Source of the DNA: Candidatus Thorarchaeota archaeon
GTDB taxonomy: Archaea; Asgardarchaeota; Thorarchaeia; Thorarchaeales; Thorarchaeaceae
Length of the DNA stretch: 15,675 nt
Direction of reading: 5' to 3'
NCBI GenBank assembly: GCA_048882385.1
Contig: JBHLRQ010000077.1
Location: 1-15,675 of the forward strand
Notes under the pieces: generated by a model
Databases searched by the model: none
The model's input: only the letters and a program-made list of their open reading frames with translations
Told to the model about the DNA's origin: nothing
Shown: positions 3,312 through 12,460 of the stretch, piece by piece
How the letters are laid out: the number at the start of each line of letters is the position of its first letter
Numbering within the stretch: position 1 is the stretch's first letter
Translations under genes and position numbers: made by a program

Positions 3312-3848
3312 TCACATTATGTATAGGAATACATCAAAGACATCATCTGTTTCAGCTGGTGTCCAGCCATCAAAGGGATGCATGTAAGACACAATTCGAG
3401 TTCCTGGTTTCAACTCGCTGGTCAACTTTGTTTTCAGCCGCCTGTTAGTGCCCGTTCGTTGAAAAACGGTCACAACTGTAGCGTCAGATAGATCTTGAGT
3501 GAAGAAGTTCCCTCTGACTACTTGCACTTTGTCTTGCAGGATACTTCGTCTGACCTTCCACCTCGACCATGCAATACGAAGAGGATCAACTTCAATACCG
3601 ATTGCAGCGGCTCCAAACTCTTTTGCAGCCATGATGACGATACGTCCATCGCCAGAACCCAAATCTATGACTGTATCCTCTCGAGAAACTTTGGCAAGTT
3701 CCAACATTTTCCTTACTGTTTCTCGTGGGGTTGGTGTCCATGCGGCACCCTTTACAAGAAAGGGCCATAGAAATGAAAGACCAAGAAAGATGGTGCAAAC
3801 CCAAATGATTAGGAAAACAATTTGAGCTAATAACCAAACATCGACCAA
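3312..3848 (-). CDS. Class I SAM-dependent methyltransferase with N-terminal TM anchor (FAM173/aKMT-like putative protein lysine methyltransferase)
   Basis: GAAWTPTP pre-motif, motif I VIDLGSGDGR, post-I GIEVDP, ELKPGTRIVSY, and an N-terminal hydrophobic helix. Start placed at TTG 3848 (MVDVWLL); the longest ORF starts at 3878. Confidence 0.85.
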   Translation of the reverse strand: MVDVWLLAQIVFLIIWVCTIFLGLSFLWPFLVKGAAWTPTPRETVRKMLELAKVSREDTVIDLGSGDGRIVIMAAKEFGAAAIGIEVDPLRIAWSRWKVRRSILQDKVQVVRGNFFTQDLSDATVVTVFQRTGTNRRLKTKLTSELKPGTRIVSYMHPFDGWTPAETDDVFDVFLYIM

Positions 3849-3982
3849 AGGAATCCCTCTATACGTTTCTCCCTCCAATCTTTTATTTCTAGTAGTTGCA
3901 AGATGAGTTGAGATAAGAAGGTAAGAATCACTCGGTTTTTCTGAGAGAAGCTAACATTACAAAGAGTTCCAGGTCCAGTAAC

Positions 3983-4774
3983 ATGAATAGGGAAGTAGTT
4001 TCACTAGAGCATGCTGAGATTGAGGACGCAGGAGTGCTAACGGACTTATGCAAAAGAGCATTTGATTCTGATTCTGAGTTTGGAGCTCCAGGGCCGGGGG
4101 GTCCCCCGGGGTACGATTCAGTTGAATGGAACTCAAGGATAATCAACAATCGATATCTGCAATACTACAAAATTCTAGATGGACACAAAACTGTTGGTGG
4201 ATTCATTGTTGGGGATAGAGGACCGAATTACCAAGTGTGTGAAAGGATCTGGATTGACCCCGATCATATGAGGAAAGGATTGGGCTCGAGAGCCTTTGGA
4301 TTGATTTGGGATAAATACCCATCAGCGGATCTCTGGGTGCTTGGAACACCAGAGTGGAACACAAGAACTAATCCTTTCTATCAGAGCCTTGGATTTACAA
4401 TGATTGGTAAAACACACGAATACTCGTGGGATGGTATCTATTACGAGAAGAAAATCACTGAAGGATTTCCGAAGGCAATGTCATTAATTGAAGACATCCG
4501 AAACAGCCAACAAAGAGTAATTGTCGAGGGGAGAGTGGAGAAGATTGCAGAACCGCGGACAGTGAAATCTCGAAAAACAGGAGAAGACCTGAAAGTGGCT
4601 GACGTGACACTGTCAGATGATACTGGCTCAATCAAGATGGTCCTATGGAACGATCAAATACCACAGGTCAGACCAGACACTCACATTCGGATTGAGGAAG
4701 GTTATGTGAAGTCATATCGTGAAGAACTTCAGCTCAGCGTAGGACAGTGGGGTATGATTATCACACTGCGTTGA
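3983..4774 (+). CDS. GNAT-family N-acetyltransferase fused to a C-terminal SSB/RPA-type OB-fold domain
   Basis: aa 1-~157 GNAT: GPPGYDS, acetyl-CoA motif A IWIDPDHMRKGLG, motif B N..TNPFYQSLGF. aa 166-263 OB fold: VIVEGRVEKIAEPRTV..., LSDDTGSIKMVLWND, IRIEEGYVKSYREELQLSVG. Confidence 0.9.
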   Translation: MNREVVSLEHAEIEDAGVLTDLCKRAFDSDSEFGAPGPGGPPGYDSVEWNSRIINNRYLQYYKILDGHKTVGGFIVGDRGPNYQVCERIWIDPDHMRKGLGSRAFGLIWDKYPSADLWVLGTPEWNTRTNPFYQSLGFTMIGKTHEYSWDGIYYEKKITEGFPKAMSLIEDIRNSQQRVIVEGRVEKIAEPRTVKSRKTGEDLKVADVTLSDDTGSIKMVLWNDQIPQVRPDTHIRIEEGYVKSYREELQLSVGQWGMIITLR

Positions 4775-4786
4775 TCATTCGTGACA

Positions 4787-5752
4787 TCAAAGACATTCAT
4801 GAGACAGAGTAGAGATTGTTTCCAGCTGCTCTCTAGAGAGCGAAATCCTCATAGCTCCAGCATTCTGCTTAGCCTGATATGTCTTCGAAGCTCCTGGAAT
4901 AGCCACAATTGTTTCGCCATGGTAGTTAGCAGTCCAGTTCAATACAATTTGGGCAATAGTCGCTTGATGTTCACTCGCGATTGCTTCCAGAGCATCAATG
5001 AGTGGCTTTGTCTTCTGGAGCTGTCGTCCTACACGCCACCTTCGAAGTCGGGGCATCGGTTGAAGAAGTTCAGGGTTTCGATGAAGGTGTCCAGTCAATG
5101 ATCCCATGCCAAGCGGAGTGTATGCTATTATCGTGATGCCAAGTTCCTTTGCAGCCTTCAAAACTCCATTGGTTTCAATACTTCTCTTCACCAATGAGAA
5201 ATGCATCTGATTTGCAGCCAGAGGAAGCCCCCGTTCAGCCAAGGCTTCATGAGCCTTGATCATCTTACTCGCTGAGAAATTACTGACACCAACTGCACGG
5301 ATAATGCCTGAATCAACGAGTTTTGCCATTTCATCCATTTGTGTGTTAACAGAAGAGAGGGATTCAGGCCTATGTACAAGGTACAGGTCGATAGGATAGG
5401 GTGAAAGGCGTTCAGTGCTCTTTGTAGCGGATTTGCGCATGGACCTGGCTCTTCTCCCTACTGGCATCCACTTAGTTGATATCAGAACATTGCCAGGAGA
5501 TACCCCAGCAGCTTTCAACCCATGTGCGACTGCTCTCTCTGATTCTCCAGATCCGTAGATTTCAGCAGTGTCAATCCAATTAATTCCACCATCAAGAGCC
5601 GCCTTGATGACCTCATCTTGGATTTTATATGGTACAGCTGCGAGGTAGTACTTGAACGGACCTTTCCCTCCCGAGAACTCCATTGCTCCCAAACCGATGG
5701 GGGTGATTTTAAGATCACTTTTTCCTAAAAGACGTTTAGCGATTTCTGACAT
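4787..5752 (-). CDS. Aldo/keto reductase
   Basis: PIGLGAM, GINWIDTAEIYG (catalytic Asp/Tyr), ISTK (Lys), IDLYLVH (His), VGVSNF, AYTPLG, AIPGA. Start placed at ATG 5752 (MSEIAKR); the ORF track extends to TTG 5812. Confidence 0.95.
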   Translation of the reverse strand: MSEIAKRLLGKSDLKITPIGLGAMEFSGGKGPFKYYLAAVPYKIQDEVIKAALDGGINWIDTAEIYGSGESERAVAHGLKAAGVSPGNVLISTKWMPVGRRARSMRKSATKSTERLSPYPIDLYLVHRPESLSSVNTQMDEMAKLVDSGIIRAVGVSNFSASKMIKAHEALAERGLPLAANQMHFSLVKRSIETNGVLKAAKELGITIIAYTPLGMGSLTGHLHRNPELLQPMPRLRRWRVGRQLQKTKPLIDALEAIASEHQATIAQIVLNWTANYHGETIVAIPGASKTYQAKQNAGAMRISLSREQLETISTLSHECL

Positions 5753-6713: not shown

Positions 6714-7472
6714 CTAATCTGTCATAGTTTCACATTCCTTAAGAAATACTATGGCACCTTTGGGCAATTTAGGTATGTCAGGTCCAGCAGCAGTCAGACT
6801 AATCGACAACACAACAGGTCTTTTTAGAGGTTTCTTCATATTCCTCTTTTTTGGAGATTTCAGATCGTCAAATTTGCCAATAGCTTCATGCATATGGTGA
6901 AACAGAGTGCTCAAGTCTTCAACATCATCCACACGAAAAGAAAGTAACTTCGTAACGACAAGTCGATCATCCTTTGCATCACTACTTGGATTTTGAGCTA
7001 AGTTCAAAATTAATTTAGATGAATATTGGTTAAGCATATTTGGAAGTGTTTCGATGGTATCTACCCAATCAGTAATGATATCTGATTTTCCCATTTCCTG
7101 AGCAAAGTCAGTTAGTTTTGCTACGTCGAATTCCTTTGTTGCCTTAATGAGGTCTTTTGAAATGAAGTAACGCAATCTGTACCGCTTGTCTGATGCAGTT
7201 TTGAGTTCTTCCTTATCAAGTATATGAGCATCGTGAAGGAGTGCTAAGTTTCTAAACATTGTTGCCTTACTGAGTCCTGTTATCTCTCTTAGCTTTGCTG
7301 GTGTTGTACTACCAAAGAGTAGGAGATAAGAGTAGATGAGAAGACAAGAGTCTAAACGAATGATCTTATTGAGTCGCTTCATCCTTTCAAGTTGTTTTTG
7401 CTCATCTAACTGAATCTTACTCTTTTGCGGAATTGTATGAACCTCCTTTAGTTCCCGACCTATCTCTCGCAT
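6714..7472 (-). CDS. Winged helix-turn-helix transcriptional regulator (ArsR/TrmB-like N-domain plus uncharacterised C-domain); true start may lie downstream of 7472
   Basis: IYSYLLLFGSTTPAKLREITGLSKATMFRNLALLHDAHIL...RYRLRYFIS is an HTH plus wing pattern. Confidence 0.85.
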   Translation of the reverse strand: MREIGRELKEVHTIPQKSKIQLDEQKQLERMKRLNKIIRLDSCLLIYSYLLLFGSTTPAKLREITGLSKATMFRNLALLHDAHILDKEELKTASDKRYRLRYFISKDLIKATKEFDVAKLTDFAQEMGKSDIITDWVDTIETLPNMLNQYSSKLILNLAQNPSSDAKDDRLVVTKLLSFRVDDVEDLSTLFHHMHEAIGKFDDLKSPKKRNMKKPLKRPVVLSISLTAAGPDIPKLPKGAIVFLKECETMTD

Positions 7473-7517: not shown

Positions 7518-8378
7518 TCAATTAGAATTGCTACTGATAAAAGCAAATCTTTGATTGGGATAGTCAAGAAGGAGCTCATAATTCTTCAAGAAAGGATATC
7601 CAACAATACCATAATCGATCTTCTTTCCTGTGGGTGAAATCATTTTGAGGTCAATGACTCCAAGCATGATGTTGTTTTGAACTGCTCCACCAATTGATAG
7701 ACTATCAACGATTGTGGCATATCCCATAGCTTTTCCTCCAATCCCCACACATTCACCACCTGAACAACCAGATGGACTTGGAGTACCTTCAGGAAGTTCC
7801 TCTGAAAGGCCGATGGTCTCAGCTAATTTTGGTGTTATAACATTTCCACTGGAACCGGTATCAAGAATTAGATCGTAGGGACCTTCACCATTGATGAAGA
7901 CAGGCACACCAACAAGATGTGCATTTTCTATGTATTTGAAATTAGTCCAATCGATTCCATCAGAAACAGTCTTGCCATTTTCTTTCTGCATTGAAAGAGT
8001 CAATGTACTATAGTCAATAGAAATACGATAGTCTTTGAGAATATCATGACCAATAACGCCTCCCGTAAAGCATCCAACTCCTTTGAATACAGAATCGAAA
8101 TCAAGCACCTTCATTTCCATGTTCAGTGATACTTCATCTCCTATTGAAAACTCTGAAACCATGGCATTCCATATAGGCACAGGTGATCCACCAGCTCCGT
8201 GGGCATGTTTCTTTTCACCAGAGTAAATTTCAATCCCCAATCGTTCTGCTAGTGACTTAGATATGGTTGTGTAACTAGCACCAGTATCAAATGTAAAGTC
8301 AATTGGGCCTGTTCCGTTCAACATTACAGGCACATGAACATGTCCTGAAGCTGGATCAATCTTGAATTTTAATTTCAT
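7518..8378 (-). CDS. Twin-domain retropepsin-like (clan AA) aspartic protease
   Basis: Two repeats, each with VPVxxNGxGP, D-T-G (FTFDTGAS at D31; LILDTGSS at D173) and a downstream G-hydrophobic-hydrophobic-G motif (GVIGHDIL; GIVGYPFL). No signal peptide. Confidence 0.92.
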   Translation of the reverse strand: MKLKFKIDPASGHVHVPVMLNGTGPIDFTFDTGASYTTISKSLAERLGIEIYSGEKKHAHGAGGSPVPIWNAMVSEFSIGDEVSLNMEMKVLDFDSVFKGVGCFTGGVIGHDILKDYRISIDYSTLTLSMQKENGKTVSDGIDWTNFKYIENAHLVGVPVFINGEGPYDLILDTGSSGNVITPKLAETIGLSEELPEGTPSPSGCSGGECVGIGGKAMGYATIVDSLSIGGAVQNNIMLGVIDLKMISPTGKKIDYGIVGYPFLKNYELLLDYPNQRFAFISSNSN

Positions 8379-8488: not shown

Positions 8489-10573
8489 TTAGCAATTTGA
8501 TGTTATGAAGACATACCAGCCGAAGGTTCCAGGTATTGGATCGGAGCAGACATAACCGAATCCATATGCATGGTCATTGACAGGATCATCCTGCTGAGGA
8601 TTCAAGGGATTTGATGATTTTGATGCATAGAATACAGCTGAAAGGATATCACTACCCTCAGTTTCAGCGCATGCTCTGAACCACGCATCCTTTATTGTAA
8701 GAGCGGGTGAAGCTCCGAATCCAGTCATATAAGTCCCGAATTTTGTGCCTCTCGTCCGAGCATTATGACTAGTCGTACTAAATCCACATACCATGTGGAT
8801 TCCCTGCAAAGTATCAGCCCAGCGCTCAAACACATTGTGTCCTGTGCTATTTTCCCAAGCTAGTGGACTGCAGGCATCAATGGCAATTGTGTCTAAATCT
8901 CCATCACCCCATCTACATTCCCTAAAGAGAAGTGATTTGTCGTCATTGTTCGTTCTGAATGTTACTCCATCAGGACCTCCATGATCCTGATAGTAAACGA
9001 AATCAACAGCATCAACCCATTCGCTATCTGTCCCACCATAGGCTTCATCTTTGAAATCCTCTTCCCAAGCACTATATTCTCCCCAGTTGAACTCTTGACT
9101 GTATCCTCCCATAACTCCCATCCAGCTATAGAAGCCTTCTATGTTTGTCTCTGTATTCCATAATGGTTTCCAGACAGATATTCCACACCATTCTATACCT
9201 ACCTCTTTGACACCATCATCGTATGCGCCTGTTGGTGCACTTGGACTAAACACTCTGTTATCATGAAGGTCATTAGTGGCGTCCACAATTGGCATTATTG
9301 TGAAAGCTGAAAGGAGCATAGAAAACACAATTAGAAACAACATCAAAACCATGGCTCCTCGTCGCTTTAAAAGAAGAATAGCTGCACCAACAACCACGAT
9401 AAGTGAACCAGCTGCGATTGCTATGGTCAGAGTTGTTGGGAATGTACTGATTGTACCTGCTTCGATAAAGACGGCAATATAGTCCATGCACCATCTATCA
9501 AGGGAGTCTTTGACTCGAACATGAATAGTATGTGGAACTGGTACTCCTTTTTTGTCAACTATTGTAAGTGAGCTTGTGGAAAAATTCTGAGCGACTGATA
9601 GTAATCCGTCAAAGTCAGAATACCAGTAGTAAACAAAAGGTCCTAGTCCATTAGTAACGACACACTCGAATGTAATGTCTTCATATTGTGTGAATGTAAG
9701 GTAGTGGCCTGGCGAAACAATCTCGACCTCCGGATCTATCAGAAAGGCGGCTATTTGAATAATCTGGAAGATATCCTCTCCATCATCAGCATCATTGATA
9801 ACCAGCTCATAATAGGGCTTGAGGAGATTGGATTCGTCTGATGATTCTGCATAATACACTAGTTCATGATTAACAACATCATCAGGAGAAAGACCATAGT
9901 GTTCGAGAATTGAGTCGTATTCGATGATAGGTTCTGTTGCATATGGTTCTGCCTTTAGTTCACGATGATTCCAGTTGAATCCAGCAATCTCTCCTCCCTC
10001 ACCAATCATTACTGTAATCTGTTCTCCAGGACCCTTTACGGGATTTTCACCAAGGAACATCTCGTAGTTCACATGCCACTGAATGACTTTGGTATTTGAA
10101 CCCCCAGCATCTATATTCCAAGCTGTCACGTTTGTTGAACCCATATTTACGAAGACGTAATTTGGAGGACGTAGTCCCTTTTCGTCAAGCCAAGCGTCTG
10201 CTTGATCTCTACATGCAGTTGGTGTAGGTACTGCTATTCCTAGTGCAATATTATATAGAAGGTCATAATCTGCAAACCACATCGACCCATCCCGAGAATC
10301 CATCTCGAAAGTCTTGTTTCCAGACCTCACTACATATTTTCCCTCAACATCCTGAGCGGATGAATCTCGAAATCCAAAGAGAGCATACGCCATGTCTTCA
10401 GCATACGTTAGATTCACTTCAGGGGGAATAATCTCGTAGACTGGCATCTCCACCTGTGAAAGAACGAAATCTGGTTTCTCAATCGTCACTGTGCTATGAG
10501 TTGTTGCAGTTTCACTAGAAACTGAAAATACCATCAAAAGCATTACTATAATTAGAATCGCATCCCGCTTCAA
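8489..10573 (-). CDS. Exported/membrane-anchored multidomain protein: signal peptide, uncharacterised N-domain, Ig/PKD-like domain, TM-KRR-TM hairpin, C-terminal DUF6345-like domain with His-Cys dyad (putative clan CD cysteine peptidase)
   Basis: N-terminal MKRD plus hydrophobic stretch; PKD-like PEVEIVSP...YYWYSDFDG...HTIHVRVKDS; TM aa ~381-402 followed by KRR; second hydrophobic stretch aa 408-430; C-domain with AWEEDFKD...VDAVDFVYYQDHGG (H531), WGDGDL, IAIDACS (C568). The DUF6345 assignment is from recalled motif resemblance, not a search. Confidence 0.75.
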   Translation of the reverse strand: MKRDAILIIVMLLMVFSVSSETATTHSTVTIEKPDFVLSQVEMPVYEIIPPEVNLTYAEDMAYALFGFRDSSAQDVEGKYVVRSGNKTFEMDSRDGSMWFADYDLLYNIALGIAVPTPTACRDQADAWLDEKGLRPPNYVFVNMGSTNVTAWNIDAGGSNTKVIQWHVNYEMFLGENPVKGPGEQITVMIGEGGEIAGFNWNHRELKAEPYATEPIIEYDSILEHYGLSPDDVVNHELVYYAESSDESNLLKPYYELVINDADDGEDIFQIIQIAAFLIDPEVEIVSPGHYLTFTQYEDITFECVVTNGLGPFVYYWYSDFDGLLSVAQNFSTSSLTIVDKKGVPVPHTIHVRVKDSLDRWCMDYIAVFIEAGTISTFPTTLTIAIAAGSLIVVVGAAILLLKRRGAMVLMLFLIVFSMLLSAFTIMPIVDATNDLHDNRVFSPSAPTGAYDDGVKEVGIEWCGISVWKPLWNTETNIEGFYSWMGVMGGYSQEFNWGEYSAWEEDFKDEAYGGTDSEWVDAVDFVYYQDHGGPDGVTFRTNNDDKSLLFRECRWGDGDLDTIAIDACSPLAWENSTGHNVFERWADTLQGIHMVCGFSTTSHNARTRGTKFGTYMTGFGASPALTIKDAWFRACAETEGSDILSAVFYASKSSNPLNPQQDDPVNDHAYGFGYVCSDPIPGTFGWYVFITSNC

Positions 10574-11254: not shown

Positions 11255-12460
11255 TTGCAGATACGTGAGAGAGAAATCAACATTAGATTTTGGATTGTAC
11301 TAGCCTGTACAATTATGGTTCTAATGCTTCTACCCCTCTCCTATTCTGACTTTCAAGAAACAGATTATTTCAGCTTTGAATACAGAAGTGTATTATTCAC
11401 ATACTATCACTATACTGACTTAGTTAGTCCCGAACTAAGTTTTGCTAACCTGACTAGACTCTTTGCGGCTATTTTCATATGCATTCCTGCGGCATATATG
11501 AATCGCAAGCTAGCAAAATCACCTATGAAAAGTCTAGACCCAGGAACAGGCCTATCCGTATTATTGGGGACAATCGTGTTGGCTACGTATTTTTCGAACA
11601 GGTTTCCTCCTTGGGAACTAACATGGTTATTTGATCCAGGATTTTATTGGGCATATATTTGGGATCTGGATAAATTCGGATTACTGATTGTTACATTTCT
11701 AATTATCGTACCGATAATAATCAGAGAAACGAAAATTGTGTGGGATTTTCGGAAGGGTCCAAATGAAACGATTGATGGTATTAATACAAACCAAAAGAAA
11801 GTCCTTGAAAGCCCTGAAAATGGATTGTCATATAGATATTTGATTCTTGGAATCTTATTTGGTTTGATAGCTGTCGTGATTCCAAATCAAATCTATATCT
11901 CCGAACTTGGATCTCTACCACCTCCCAATAATTCCTTCTCAATTGATGGAGCTACCCTTTTCTTTCATTTTGGGATTAGAAATCAACCCATACCATATAA
12001 CATGCTAGATATTGTCTTTAGAATTGAATCTCCCATAGATATGCTTAATCAACTTCCATATGCTGGATTCCAGTTACTCATTATTTTTGGTCTTCTCCAA
12101 TATCTTCGCGGGAACATAACCAAGATGAGAATCTTGATTCTGGGTGTTCTGAGTCTAGTTGTCCCATATGCCTATCGAGCATCTGCAAATATTGTATATA
12201 ACGTAGGAGAAGAGTATATCATACCAATTCCAGTGGTTCTTCTTATTGGGATTCTAGTTTTAAAAATCGCAAAACCAATTGATATAACCCTCCTATCTCA
12301 AAAGAAATCCATCTTAGAAATGACCAAGAGCTCGATTCCACCAATACAAAGAGATAGAATTCAGATTCCGTTTCTATATGTAATCAAATCCAAGTTCTCC
12401 TCCTTTATGAGAAGAATATCCGGAAAAACCACATCAATAAAAACAACGGACAGAAACTGA
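11255..12460 (+). CDS. Hypothetical polytopic membrane protein (~8 TM, apparent two-fold internal repeat)
   Basis: 401-aa ORF, TTG start, about eight hydrophobic segments, basic cytoplasmic tail; visibly more AT-rich than the metabolic genes. Confidence 0.75.
   Translation: MQIREREINIRFWIVLACTIMVLMLLPLSYSDFQETDYFSFEYRSVLFTYYHYTDLVSPELSFANLTRLFAAIFICIPAAYMNRKLAKSPMKSLDPGTGLSVLLGTIVLATYFSNRFPPWELTWLFDPGFYWAYIWDLDKFGLLIVTFLIIVPIIIRETKIVWDFRKGPNETIDGINTNQKKVLESPENGLSYRYLILGILFGLIAVVIPNQIYISELGSLPPPNNSFSIDGATLFFHFGIRNQPIPYNMLDIVFRIESPIDMLNQLPYAGFQLLIIFGLLQYLRGNITKMRILILGVLSLVVPYAYRASANIVYNVGEEYIIPIPVVLLIGILVLKIAKPIDITLLSQKKSILEMTKSSIPPIQRDRIQIPFLYVIKSKFSSFMRRISGKTTSIKTTDRN

Follow-up and report, generated by a model that had tools for sequence, protein, structure and literature searches.

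The window analyzed here is the whole of a 15,675-nucleotide stretch of Candidatus Thorarchaeota archaeon DNA (assembly GCA_048882385.1, contig JBHLRQ010000077.1). A gene on its forward strand, at positions 3983 to 4774, encodes a protein in which a GNAT acetyltransferase domain is fused to an OB fold of the kind found in proteins that bind single-stranded DNA (SSBs) and in replication protein A (RPA). In the reading that we favor, with a probability of roughly 0.4, the product would be an N-acetyltransferase that uses acetyl-CoA and is fixed in place on an OB fold of the SSB type, with an amine of a strand-bound protein as the acceptor; we infer that it would bind nucleic acid, be enzymatically active, and use an acceptor of this nature. 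The features of the gene are the following:

3983..4774, forward strand: GNAT + OB fusion gene, a single open reading frame of 263 amino acids, stop codon included in the span
3983..4456, forward strand: GNAT acetyltransferase domain, residues 1-158 (PF13508, PF00583, model, structural Z scores, and a PaiA profile match)
4082..4120, forward strand: Gly/Pro-rich loop, residues 34-46, ...GAPGPGGPPGYDS, between helices 1 and 2, acceptor side (subfamily signature)
4241..4243, forward strand: Glu87 in strand 4, candidate general base (conservation and LcGNAT alignment)
4268..4285, forward strand: acetyl-CoA pyrophosphate-binding loop, residues 96-101, M-R-K-G-L-G (conservation)
4379..4381, forward strand: Tyr133, counterpart of catalytic Tyr142 in LcGNAT and PaiA (alignment)
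4457..4516, forward strand: conserved linker, residues 159-178, containing Met166 (ATG 4478-4480) (conservation and model)
4478..4771, forward strand: SSB/RPA-type OB fold, residues 166-263 (PF21473, PF01336, PRK06461.1-3, and structure matches)
4646..4648, forward strand: Trp222, on W56 of Sulfolobus SSB (SsoSSB) (HMMER alignment)
4703..4717, forward strand: Tyr241 and Tyr245, on W75 and F79 of SsoSSB (HMMER alignment)

The open reading frame (3983..4774, +) starts with ATG and runs for 263 codons with no internal stops, and GNAT and OB were the sole domain types in a Pfam scan of the 263-residue protein. The N-terminal half was detected as Acetyltransf_7 (PF13508, residues 62-139, E 1.4e-6, 29 bits against a cut-off of 27) and as Acetyltransf_1 (PF00583, E 6.6e-6, 26.8 bits against a cut-off of 20.7), and the C-terminal half as Ssb-like_OB (PF21473, residues 185-259, E 2.7e-9, 37.5 bits against a cut-off of 24) and as tRNA_anti-codon OB (PF01336, residues 179-256, E 1.9e-8, above the gathering cut-off). 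The NCBIfam SSB model PRK06461.1-3 matched residues 168-259 with an E value of 2e-21, covering profile positions 6-96 of 144; at 76.7 bits, the fusion protein does not reach the PRK06461 equivalog cut-off of 188 bits. An earlier sequence-only reading of this DNA had described a GNAT domain joined in frame by a short linker to an OB fold, and the open reading frame, Pfam, NCBIfam, and an AlphaFold2 model all bear this out. The DxTGxIxxxLW motif that it had pointed to in the OB fold is indeed there (D212 to W222), and the ATG at 4478 is codon 166, as it had said.

The AlphaFold2 model, built from a 28-row alignment, has a mean predicted local distance difference test score (pLDDT) of 92.5 and a predicted template modeling score (pTM) of 0.87 for the 263-residue protein. 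In it, GNAT strands and helices extend to residue 157 and are followed by a short linker and a five-stranded OB barrel (residues 179-262), the final strand of which ends the protein, so that a C-terminal tail is absent. The model of a 33%-identical paralogue (P0131) scores similarly (pLDDT 93.0, pTM 0.88). The models suggest that the two domains are placed in a defined mutual orientation; the two pTM values, taken with the conserved linker, make a fixed domain geometry plausible. A two-copy homodimer prediction scored 0.00 and is informative neither way. The OB half superposes on SsoSSB (1o7i) with a root-mean-square deviation of 1.5 Å over 98 columns, and its structural Z scores are 13.4 to a Methanococcus maripaludis RPA domain (3e0e), 13.2 to human SSB1 (5d8e), and 12.8 to Pyrococcus abyssi Rpa1 (8aa9). 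The GNAT half has its top VIA Z scores, 15.1 to 14.4, to many small GNATs, with 137 to 158 residues aligned; CBU0801, LcGNAT, archaeal Ard1, RimI, PA4794, and Naa50/60 are nearly tied at Z 13 to 15. Foldseek and structural Z searches of solved structures found no PDB chain spanning both halves, and full-text literature searches, mostly judged from listings, found no paper on the GNAT-OB architecture. The sequence-only reading knew of no characterized protein with this architecture, which agrees with what we found in the literature and among solved structures.

Conservation was assessed in 73 aligned rows: the window protein and the 72 loci that matched more than 240 query residues, out of 80 loci returned by a pattern scan with one genome per species. 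Left out of this set were the bacterial GNAT-only loci L108-L112, the truncated L065 and L107, and L067, which fell below the coverage filter. The GNAT consensus for the pyrophosphate loop after strand 4 is Q/R-x-x-G-x-G/A. In this family, the cofactor loop follows the pattern Q/H/M-R/N-x-G-x-G/A: its first position is M, H, or Q, G99 is present in 69 of 73 members, and position 101 is G or A in all of them. Tyr occupies position 133 in 70 of the 73 members. Every member has a Glu at position 85 or 87; where E87 is missing, in seven members, E85 is present two residues away on the same strand, and the shift looks compensated. The G-T-P-E-W-N segment (121-126) is almost invariant; G34, P36, G39, G40, P41, G43, and Y44 are invariant or nearly so, including in stand-alone bacterial relatives, and D45 is acidic in 99% of members. 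When a profile of the GNAT half (36 sequences, stand-alone bacterial proteins included) was aligned to LcGNAT (8osp), Glu92 of LcGNAT fell on position 85, Tyr142 on Y133, and Tyr97 on position 90, which is W or F in all 73 members. The LcGNAT study reports the mutants E92Q and Y142F as impaired, with the strand Glu acting as general base and the catalytic Tyr as general acid (PMC10416765).

In the OB half, all 73 members keep W222, 69 have an aromatic residue (Y, F, or H) at position 241, and all have Y or F at position 245. HMMER alignment with SsoSSB (2mna) places W222 on W56, Y241 on W75, Y245 on F79, and V194 on I30. W56, W75, and F79 are named as residues important for ssDNA binding in a study of SsoSSB, which also shows that the protein binds ssRNA no less than ssDNA (PMC5346138). 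The base-stacking aromatics proposed from the sequence alone are therefore kept, on the SsoSSB triad and throughout the family. Basic residues occupy positions 192, 197, and 236 (R192, R197, and R236 in the window protein) in 99-100% of members. With cofactor, catalytic, and base-stacking positions all retained, both halves look active, and the GNAT half and the OB half both look functional as far as their residues tell. The two halves differ in charge across the 73 members: the acidic GNAT half has a median net charge of -4 (isoelectric point 5.4), with conserved acidic residues at D15, D30, E32, D45, D92, and E124, and the basic OB half has a median of +2 (isoelectric point 9.3). An acidic GNAT half speaks against an acceptor on nucleic acid; a cationic acceptor is probable. 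Within the Thor clade (defined below), members are 63-79% identical to one another, and the GNAT-OB family is under strong purifying selection.

The fusion is widespread. At E<=1e-3, a word-indexed search of proteins gave 462 relatives. Of these, the top 120 are 256-326 amino acids long and 67-92% identical, match both GNAT and OB Pfam families in 112 cases and OB only in eight, and, where a source is named, come mostly from Thorarchaeota, with Sif-, Hermod-, Hod-, and Promethearchaeota also represented. Public annotations of the relatives read "GNAT family N-acetyltransferase," "OB-fold nucleic acid binding domain-containing protein," or "replication factor A1." We also surveyed 301 sampled genomes of the window's phylum, including its own (G000), taking counts from the best 150 matches and excluding 638 weaker ones. 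An intact match across both domains was found in at least 56 of the 301 genomes, and in six more the copy is cut by a contig end or carries stops (G191, G124, G194; G098, G158, G130). At least 11 genomes have two copies, one 52-78% and the other about 40-47% identical to the query. Among the matches listed, the 24 other genomes of the same genus comprise 17 with an intact copy, three with a partial one, and four with none (completeness 74-87%); six genomes of sister genera that are 97-99% complete (G005, G027, G037, G055, G075, and G128) had none with this query, again among the matches listed. The gene is thus conserved yet optional. The window's own genome has an apparent paralogous GNAT-OB copy on another contig (C241:2537-2824, +; L019), 47% identical over residues 6-101 and cut by the end of that 2,825-base contig.

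By record title, full-length members belong to Thor-, Hermod-, Heimdall-, and Hodarchaeota, "Promethearchaeota," 22 Bathyarchaeia/Bathyarchaeota, and two Theionarchaea, and one lies on a contig that had been binned to a bacterium of the Krumholzibacteriaceae. In a quick maximum-likelihood tree, the window protein falls in a Thor clade of 33 rows with strong support, and there are also two separate Bathyarchaeia clades and the Theionarchaea pair; this pattern requires either transfer across phyla or many losses. The fusion on the Krumholzibacteriaceae-binned contig (L069) is nearly identical to those of two Bathyarchaeota metagenome-assembled genomes (L072 and L085; branch lengths 0.017-0.033), and two such genomes labeled "Thorarchaeota" and "Heimdallarchaeota" (L070 and L071) carry identical fusion proteins. 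For both sets, an error of binning or labeling is as likely as recent transfer. The sequence-only reading had held that a fusion confined to this assembly would point to an artifact or a recent stop loss. The fusion occurs in many other genomes, and both possibilities are ruled out by its presence in the genomes just counted, by the 73 aligned loci, and by contigs from other studies that bridge the junction with substitutions only and no indels (X7 record 10, 4061-4900; X10 record 2, 3860-4757).

How might such a protein work? The OB half would bind ssDNA or ssRNA through W222, Y241, Y245, and the conserved arginines, bringing the enzyme to exposed strands. The acidic GNAT half would then move an acetyl group from acetyl-CoA to a cationic amine on or beside the strand. 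The acceptor would be a lysine or the N-terminal amine of a strand-bound protein, for example one of the genome's own SSB- or RPA-type proteins. We propose an accessory role, perhaps one tied to stress or damage, and not one in core replication. To our knowledge, the acceptors of characterized GNATs that carry a nucleic-acid- or chromatin-binding module are all macromolecules, and it is for this reason that we rank a protein acceptor first. The structural Z scores are in keeping with it: the GNAT half is tied with Ard1 (4pv6, 14.7), RimI (5isv, 14.5), and Naa50/Naa60 (13.2-13.7). An archaeal precedent is SsArd1, another enzyme, which is reported to acetylate Sulfolobus SSB (PMC5390088), so that acetylation and SSB biology do meet in archaea.

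The genome has proteins of the kind that such an enzyme might act on. Six of its regions match PF21473, and four of these are stand-alone proteins of 160-214 amino acids that match PRK06461 at 1e-41 to 6e-23; the OB half of the fusion is 28-31% identical to these four. Their genes lie on contigs C17, C3, and C30 (L001:1261-1809, -; L002:1267-1911, -; L005:1456-1938, +; and L004:1348-1893, +), two of them in tandem on C17. All four have long tails: three are rich in Gly, Tyr, and Arg (RGG/GY-like), and the one on C30 is rich in Arg and Lys without such repeats. Sulfolobus SSB has an acidic tail; none of the four tails is acidic.

Several observations weigh against a strand-bound protein as the acceptor. 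The closest solved relatives of the GNAT half by profile appear to be small-amine enzymes, with bona fide N-terminal acetyltransferases (NATs) scoring much more weakly, and the rimI model TIGR01575 is far below its cut-off (17.6 bits against 86.4), so that curated NAT membership is not reached. The same GNAT subfamily occurs as stand-alone proteins in bacteria, and the acceptor therefore need not depend on the OB fold. The window protein's own OB half departs from the family median in being slightly acidic (net charge -1, isoelectric point 5.8). No replication, repair, or other DNA-metabolism gene was found as a neighbor in comparisons of 11, 15, and 80 loci. Finally, the patchy distribution and the suggested cross-phylum transfer fit an accessory detoxification or metabolic gene equally well.

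The leading alternative is one that we regard as possible and hold only tentatively: a PaiA/SSAT-like GNAT would acetylate polyamines or other nucleic-acid-binding cationic amines (e.g., an aminated antimetabolite or antibiotic) that are concentrated on single strands, and acetylation, by lowering the charge of the amine, would release it from the strand. By profile, the nearest solved GNAT is Bacillus subtilis PaiA (1tiq, E 8.6e-11, positions 2-140), followed by LcGNAT (8osp, 3.1e-9), 2q7b (1e-8), the RimI-labeled CBU0801 (9mto, 1.5e-8, Z 15.1), a putative streptothricin acetyltransferase (3pp9, 2.6e-7), and SSAT2 (2bei, 6.1e-6); the NATs follow with RimI (5isv, 1.5e-4), Naa30 (3.3e-3), and TvArd1 (4pv6, 0.028). 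PaiA and LcGNAT entries also take Foldseek ranks 1-3, at 17-19% identity. The LcGNAT paper places PaiA in the spermidine/spermine acetyltransferase family and assigns LcGNAT, which is selective for canavanine, to the polyamine acetyltransferase subclass (PMC10416765). This link makes a small cationic amine a likelier acceptor; at such identity, it is a lead and not an assignment. A small-molecule acceptor is also favored by the conserved acidic residues on the acceptor side, by the patchy and apparently transfer-prone distribution of the gene, by fusions of the same GNAT subfamily to an AAA_18 kinase-like domain and to pentapeptide repeats, and by the genes within 4 kb, where major facilitator superfamily (MFS) transporters occur at 12 + 4 of 80 loci, an ABC exporter at eight, and an ArsR/MarR-type helix-turn-helix protein at seven. 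Transporter and regulator neighbors are a lead only, since the loci are kin and such genes are common.

On the other hand, GNAT acceptors change easily at the distance that separates the fusion from PaiA and LcGNAT, and the RimI-labeled 9mto scores nearly as well as they do. We know of no small-molecule GNAT with a nucleic-acid-binding domain, a small molecule that exchanges freely would gain little in kinetics from tethering, and the adjacent MFS gene (at locus L034) is convergent and hence not in an operon with the fusion. The hallmark loop of the wider GNAT subfamily, ...G-x-P-G-x-G-G-P-P-G-Y-D-S, is also present in stand-alone bacterial proteins of about 150-170 amino acids; the look-alikes of the GNAT half in the ESM Atlas are generic stand-alone bacterial GNAT clusters with no function attached, and the cluster names of the stand-alone relatives are generic only ("RimJ/RimL family," "predicted acetyltransferase"). 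Five other proteins (P0133, P0160, P0257, P0159, and P0232) join a GNAT domain of this subfamily to a different partner: a SWIM zinc finger, pentapeptide repeats (two proteins), a transglutaminase-like core, or an AAA_18 kinase-like domain.

An unlikely alternative is that the OB fold is regulatory and that strand binding, as would follow from damage, stalled replication, or unfolded RNA, switches the GNAT domain on or off. From the confident global models and the conserved linker, the domains seem to pack in a fixed way by which the two sites could be coupled, and there are known GNATs with a fused regulatory domain, such as mycobacterial Pat with its cAMP-binding domain. This proposal overlaps with the others and is compatible with them instead of excluding them, which limits its force as a rival. 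A broader possibility, which we consider similarly improbable, is that of a strand-guided modifying or signaling enzyme, without a known counterpart, that either acetylates ssDNA or ssRNA itself, for example on the exocyclic amine of cytosine, or senses ssDNA and converts it into an acetylation signal on proteins or polyamines.

An acceptor borne by the nucleic acid seems more doubtful still. Here the OB fold would feed the strand to the GNAT site, where a base amine (e.g., cytosine N4) or the amino group of an aminoacyl-tRNA would be acetylated. The confident placement of an SSB-type OB fold beside a catalytic domain and the Pfam tRNA_anti-codon OB match speak for it, and TmcA/NAT10 and the TacT/AtaT toxins are GNAT precedents for such acceptors. 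Against it stand the acidity of the GNAT half, which is unlike enzymes that grip RNA, the lack of a TmcA-type helicase or tRNA-binding module in the Pfam scan, the weak match to KacT (5zgn, E 0.0094), the absence of an antitoxin-like gene among the flanking genes, and the existence of stand-alone bacterial subfamily members without a nucleic-acid module.

Equally hard to sustain is the idea that the OB fold no longer binds nucleic acid and now serves as a protein- or sugar-binding module, or that a start at Met166 yields a free SSB isoform: OB folds do bind varied ligands, but all 73 members retain the arginines and the base-stacking triad almost without exception. The isoform had been suggested by the sequence-only reading, and we found no support for it. 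Met166 is found in 32 of the 33 Thor-clade members, at the position where a stand-alone SSB would start, but the other clade has it in only 16 of its 40 members and I, F, L, or T in the remaining 24, as would suit a residue of the hydrophobic core. When the codons of the 33 orthologues were aligned and measured in 9-codon windows, normalized codon entropy was 0.75-0.87 around codons 151-172 against a gene mean of 0.78, and the lowest-entropy windows lie near codons 66-70, 133-136, and 186-187, i.e., away from codon 166. Synonymous variation thus does not fall upstream of codon 166, and nothing hints at a ribosome-binding or promoter element embedded there; moreover, stand-alone SSB genes, at least four of them, are already present in the genome.

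In the window, the fusion is flanked by a divergent gene for a membrane-anchored DOT1-like methyltransferase and by a convergent aldo/keto reductase gene, with PEMT/ICMT-like, MFS, and acetoacetate decarboxylase genes farther out. Among 11 close loci, an MFS gene is nearby in six, a PEMT gene in four, and a DOT1-like methyltransferase gene in one; at 15 loci with 6-kb flanks, PEMT is the sole recurrent neighbor (four loci). At 80 loci with 4-kb flanks, the top neighbor clusters are PEMT/ICMT-like (13 loci) and MFS (12), all in one clade, and ABC transporters, a dehalogenase-like Fe-S protein, and ArsR/MarR-type regulators also recur. No conserved operon partner was found: recurrent neighbors reach at most 13 of 80 loci within a single clade. 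Membership in a defense system was considered and rejected, as PADLOC had no match for the fusion; in PHROGs, it matched only a generic acetyltransferase (phrog_1249, E 3.7e-8). A GNAT toxin-antitoxin pair was likewise rejected: the flanking genes encode a methyltransferase and an aldo/keto reductase, and neither is antitoxin-like, and the KacT match is weak.

Other genes of the window deserve mention. The DOT1-like neighbor (3312-3878, -) encodes a 188-residue class I methyltransferase with a hydrophobic N-terminal segment, which matches Pfam DOT1 (PF08123, a histone methylation protein family) with an E value of 1e-7, above the cut-off, and PADLOC mad2 at E 4.8e-15. A 286-residue protein (7518-8378, -) has two retropepsin-like aspartyl protease stretches (PF13650, E 2.4e-30), and the adjoining gene (8489-10573, -) encodes a 694-residue protein whose C terminus matches DUF6345 (E 1.1e-52). 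Three open reading frames of 394, 252, and 401 codons (1181-2365, -; 6714-7472, -; and 11255-12460, +) have no Pfam match at E<=1e-3; relatives of the 252-residue product (6714-7472, -) are found near the fusion at one other locus (L031/L018), and it has a weak Csa3-like PADLOC match (E 0.0069).

The family is present in three or more lineages of archaea from anoxic sediments, among them the Asgard archaea, which are relatives of eukaryotes. If a strand-bound protein is the acceptor, the fusion would be a simple self-targeting precursor of the acetylation of RPA and SSB1 at DNA damage in eukaryotes. If it acts on polyamines bound to nucleic acids, it would represent a new way of controlling nucleic-acid counter-ions, and if it is an ssDNA sensor, it would be an archaeal, enzyme-built analogue of damage signaling through RPA-coated ssDNA. 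At 263 residues, the protein is small, confidently predicted, and easy to study in vitro.

Both domains are textbook modules, and it is their combination that is new; this is not a new kind of system, and the fusion can be set beside four groups of known proteins. Like PaiA and LcGNAT, it has the catalytic Tyr, the strand Glu, and a similar L-G-x-x-E-x-N...F-Y...G-F segment; unlike them, it has the loop GGPPGYDS, the G-T-P-E-W-N motif, and an OB fold. With archaeal Ard1 (4pv6/4r3k), RimI (5isv/2cnm), and Naa50/Naa60, it shares the minimal GNAT fold of about 150 residues (Z 13.0-14.7), whereas those enzymes lack a nucleic-acid-binding domain of their own. TmcA/NAT10 and the toxins TacT, AtaT, and KacT also pair GNAT catalysis with nucleic-acid recognition, which is an analogy of concept only: TmcA flanks its GNAT domain with helicase and tRNA-binding domains, which Pfam did not find in the fusion, and the toxins differ in that the fusion has only the marginal KacT match noted above, an acidic catalytic half, and no antitoxin neighbor that we could find. 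Finally, like SsoSSB (1o7i/2mna; PF21473; PRK06461) and human SSB1/NABP2 (5d8e), the fusion has a single OB fold, and with the SsoSSB type it shares the D-x-T-G-x-I/V-x-x-x-L-W motif and aromatics at the W56, W75, and F79 positions; it differs from that type in having no C-terminal tail, in scoring below the SSB equivalog cut-off, and in carrying an enzyme domain at its N terminus.

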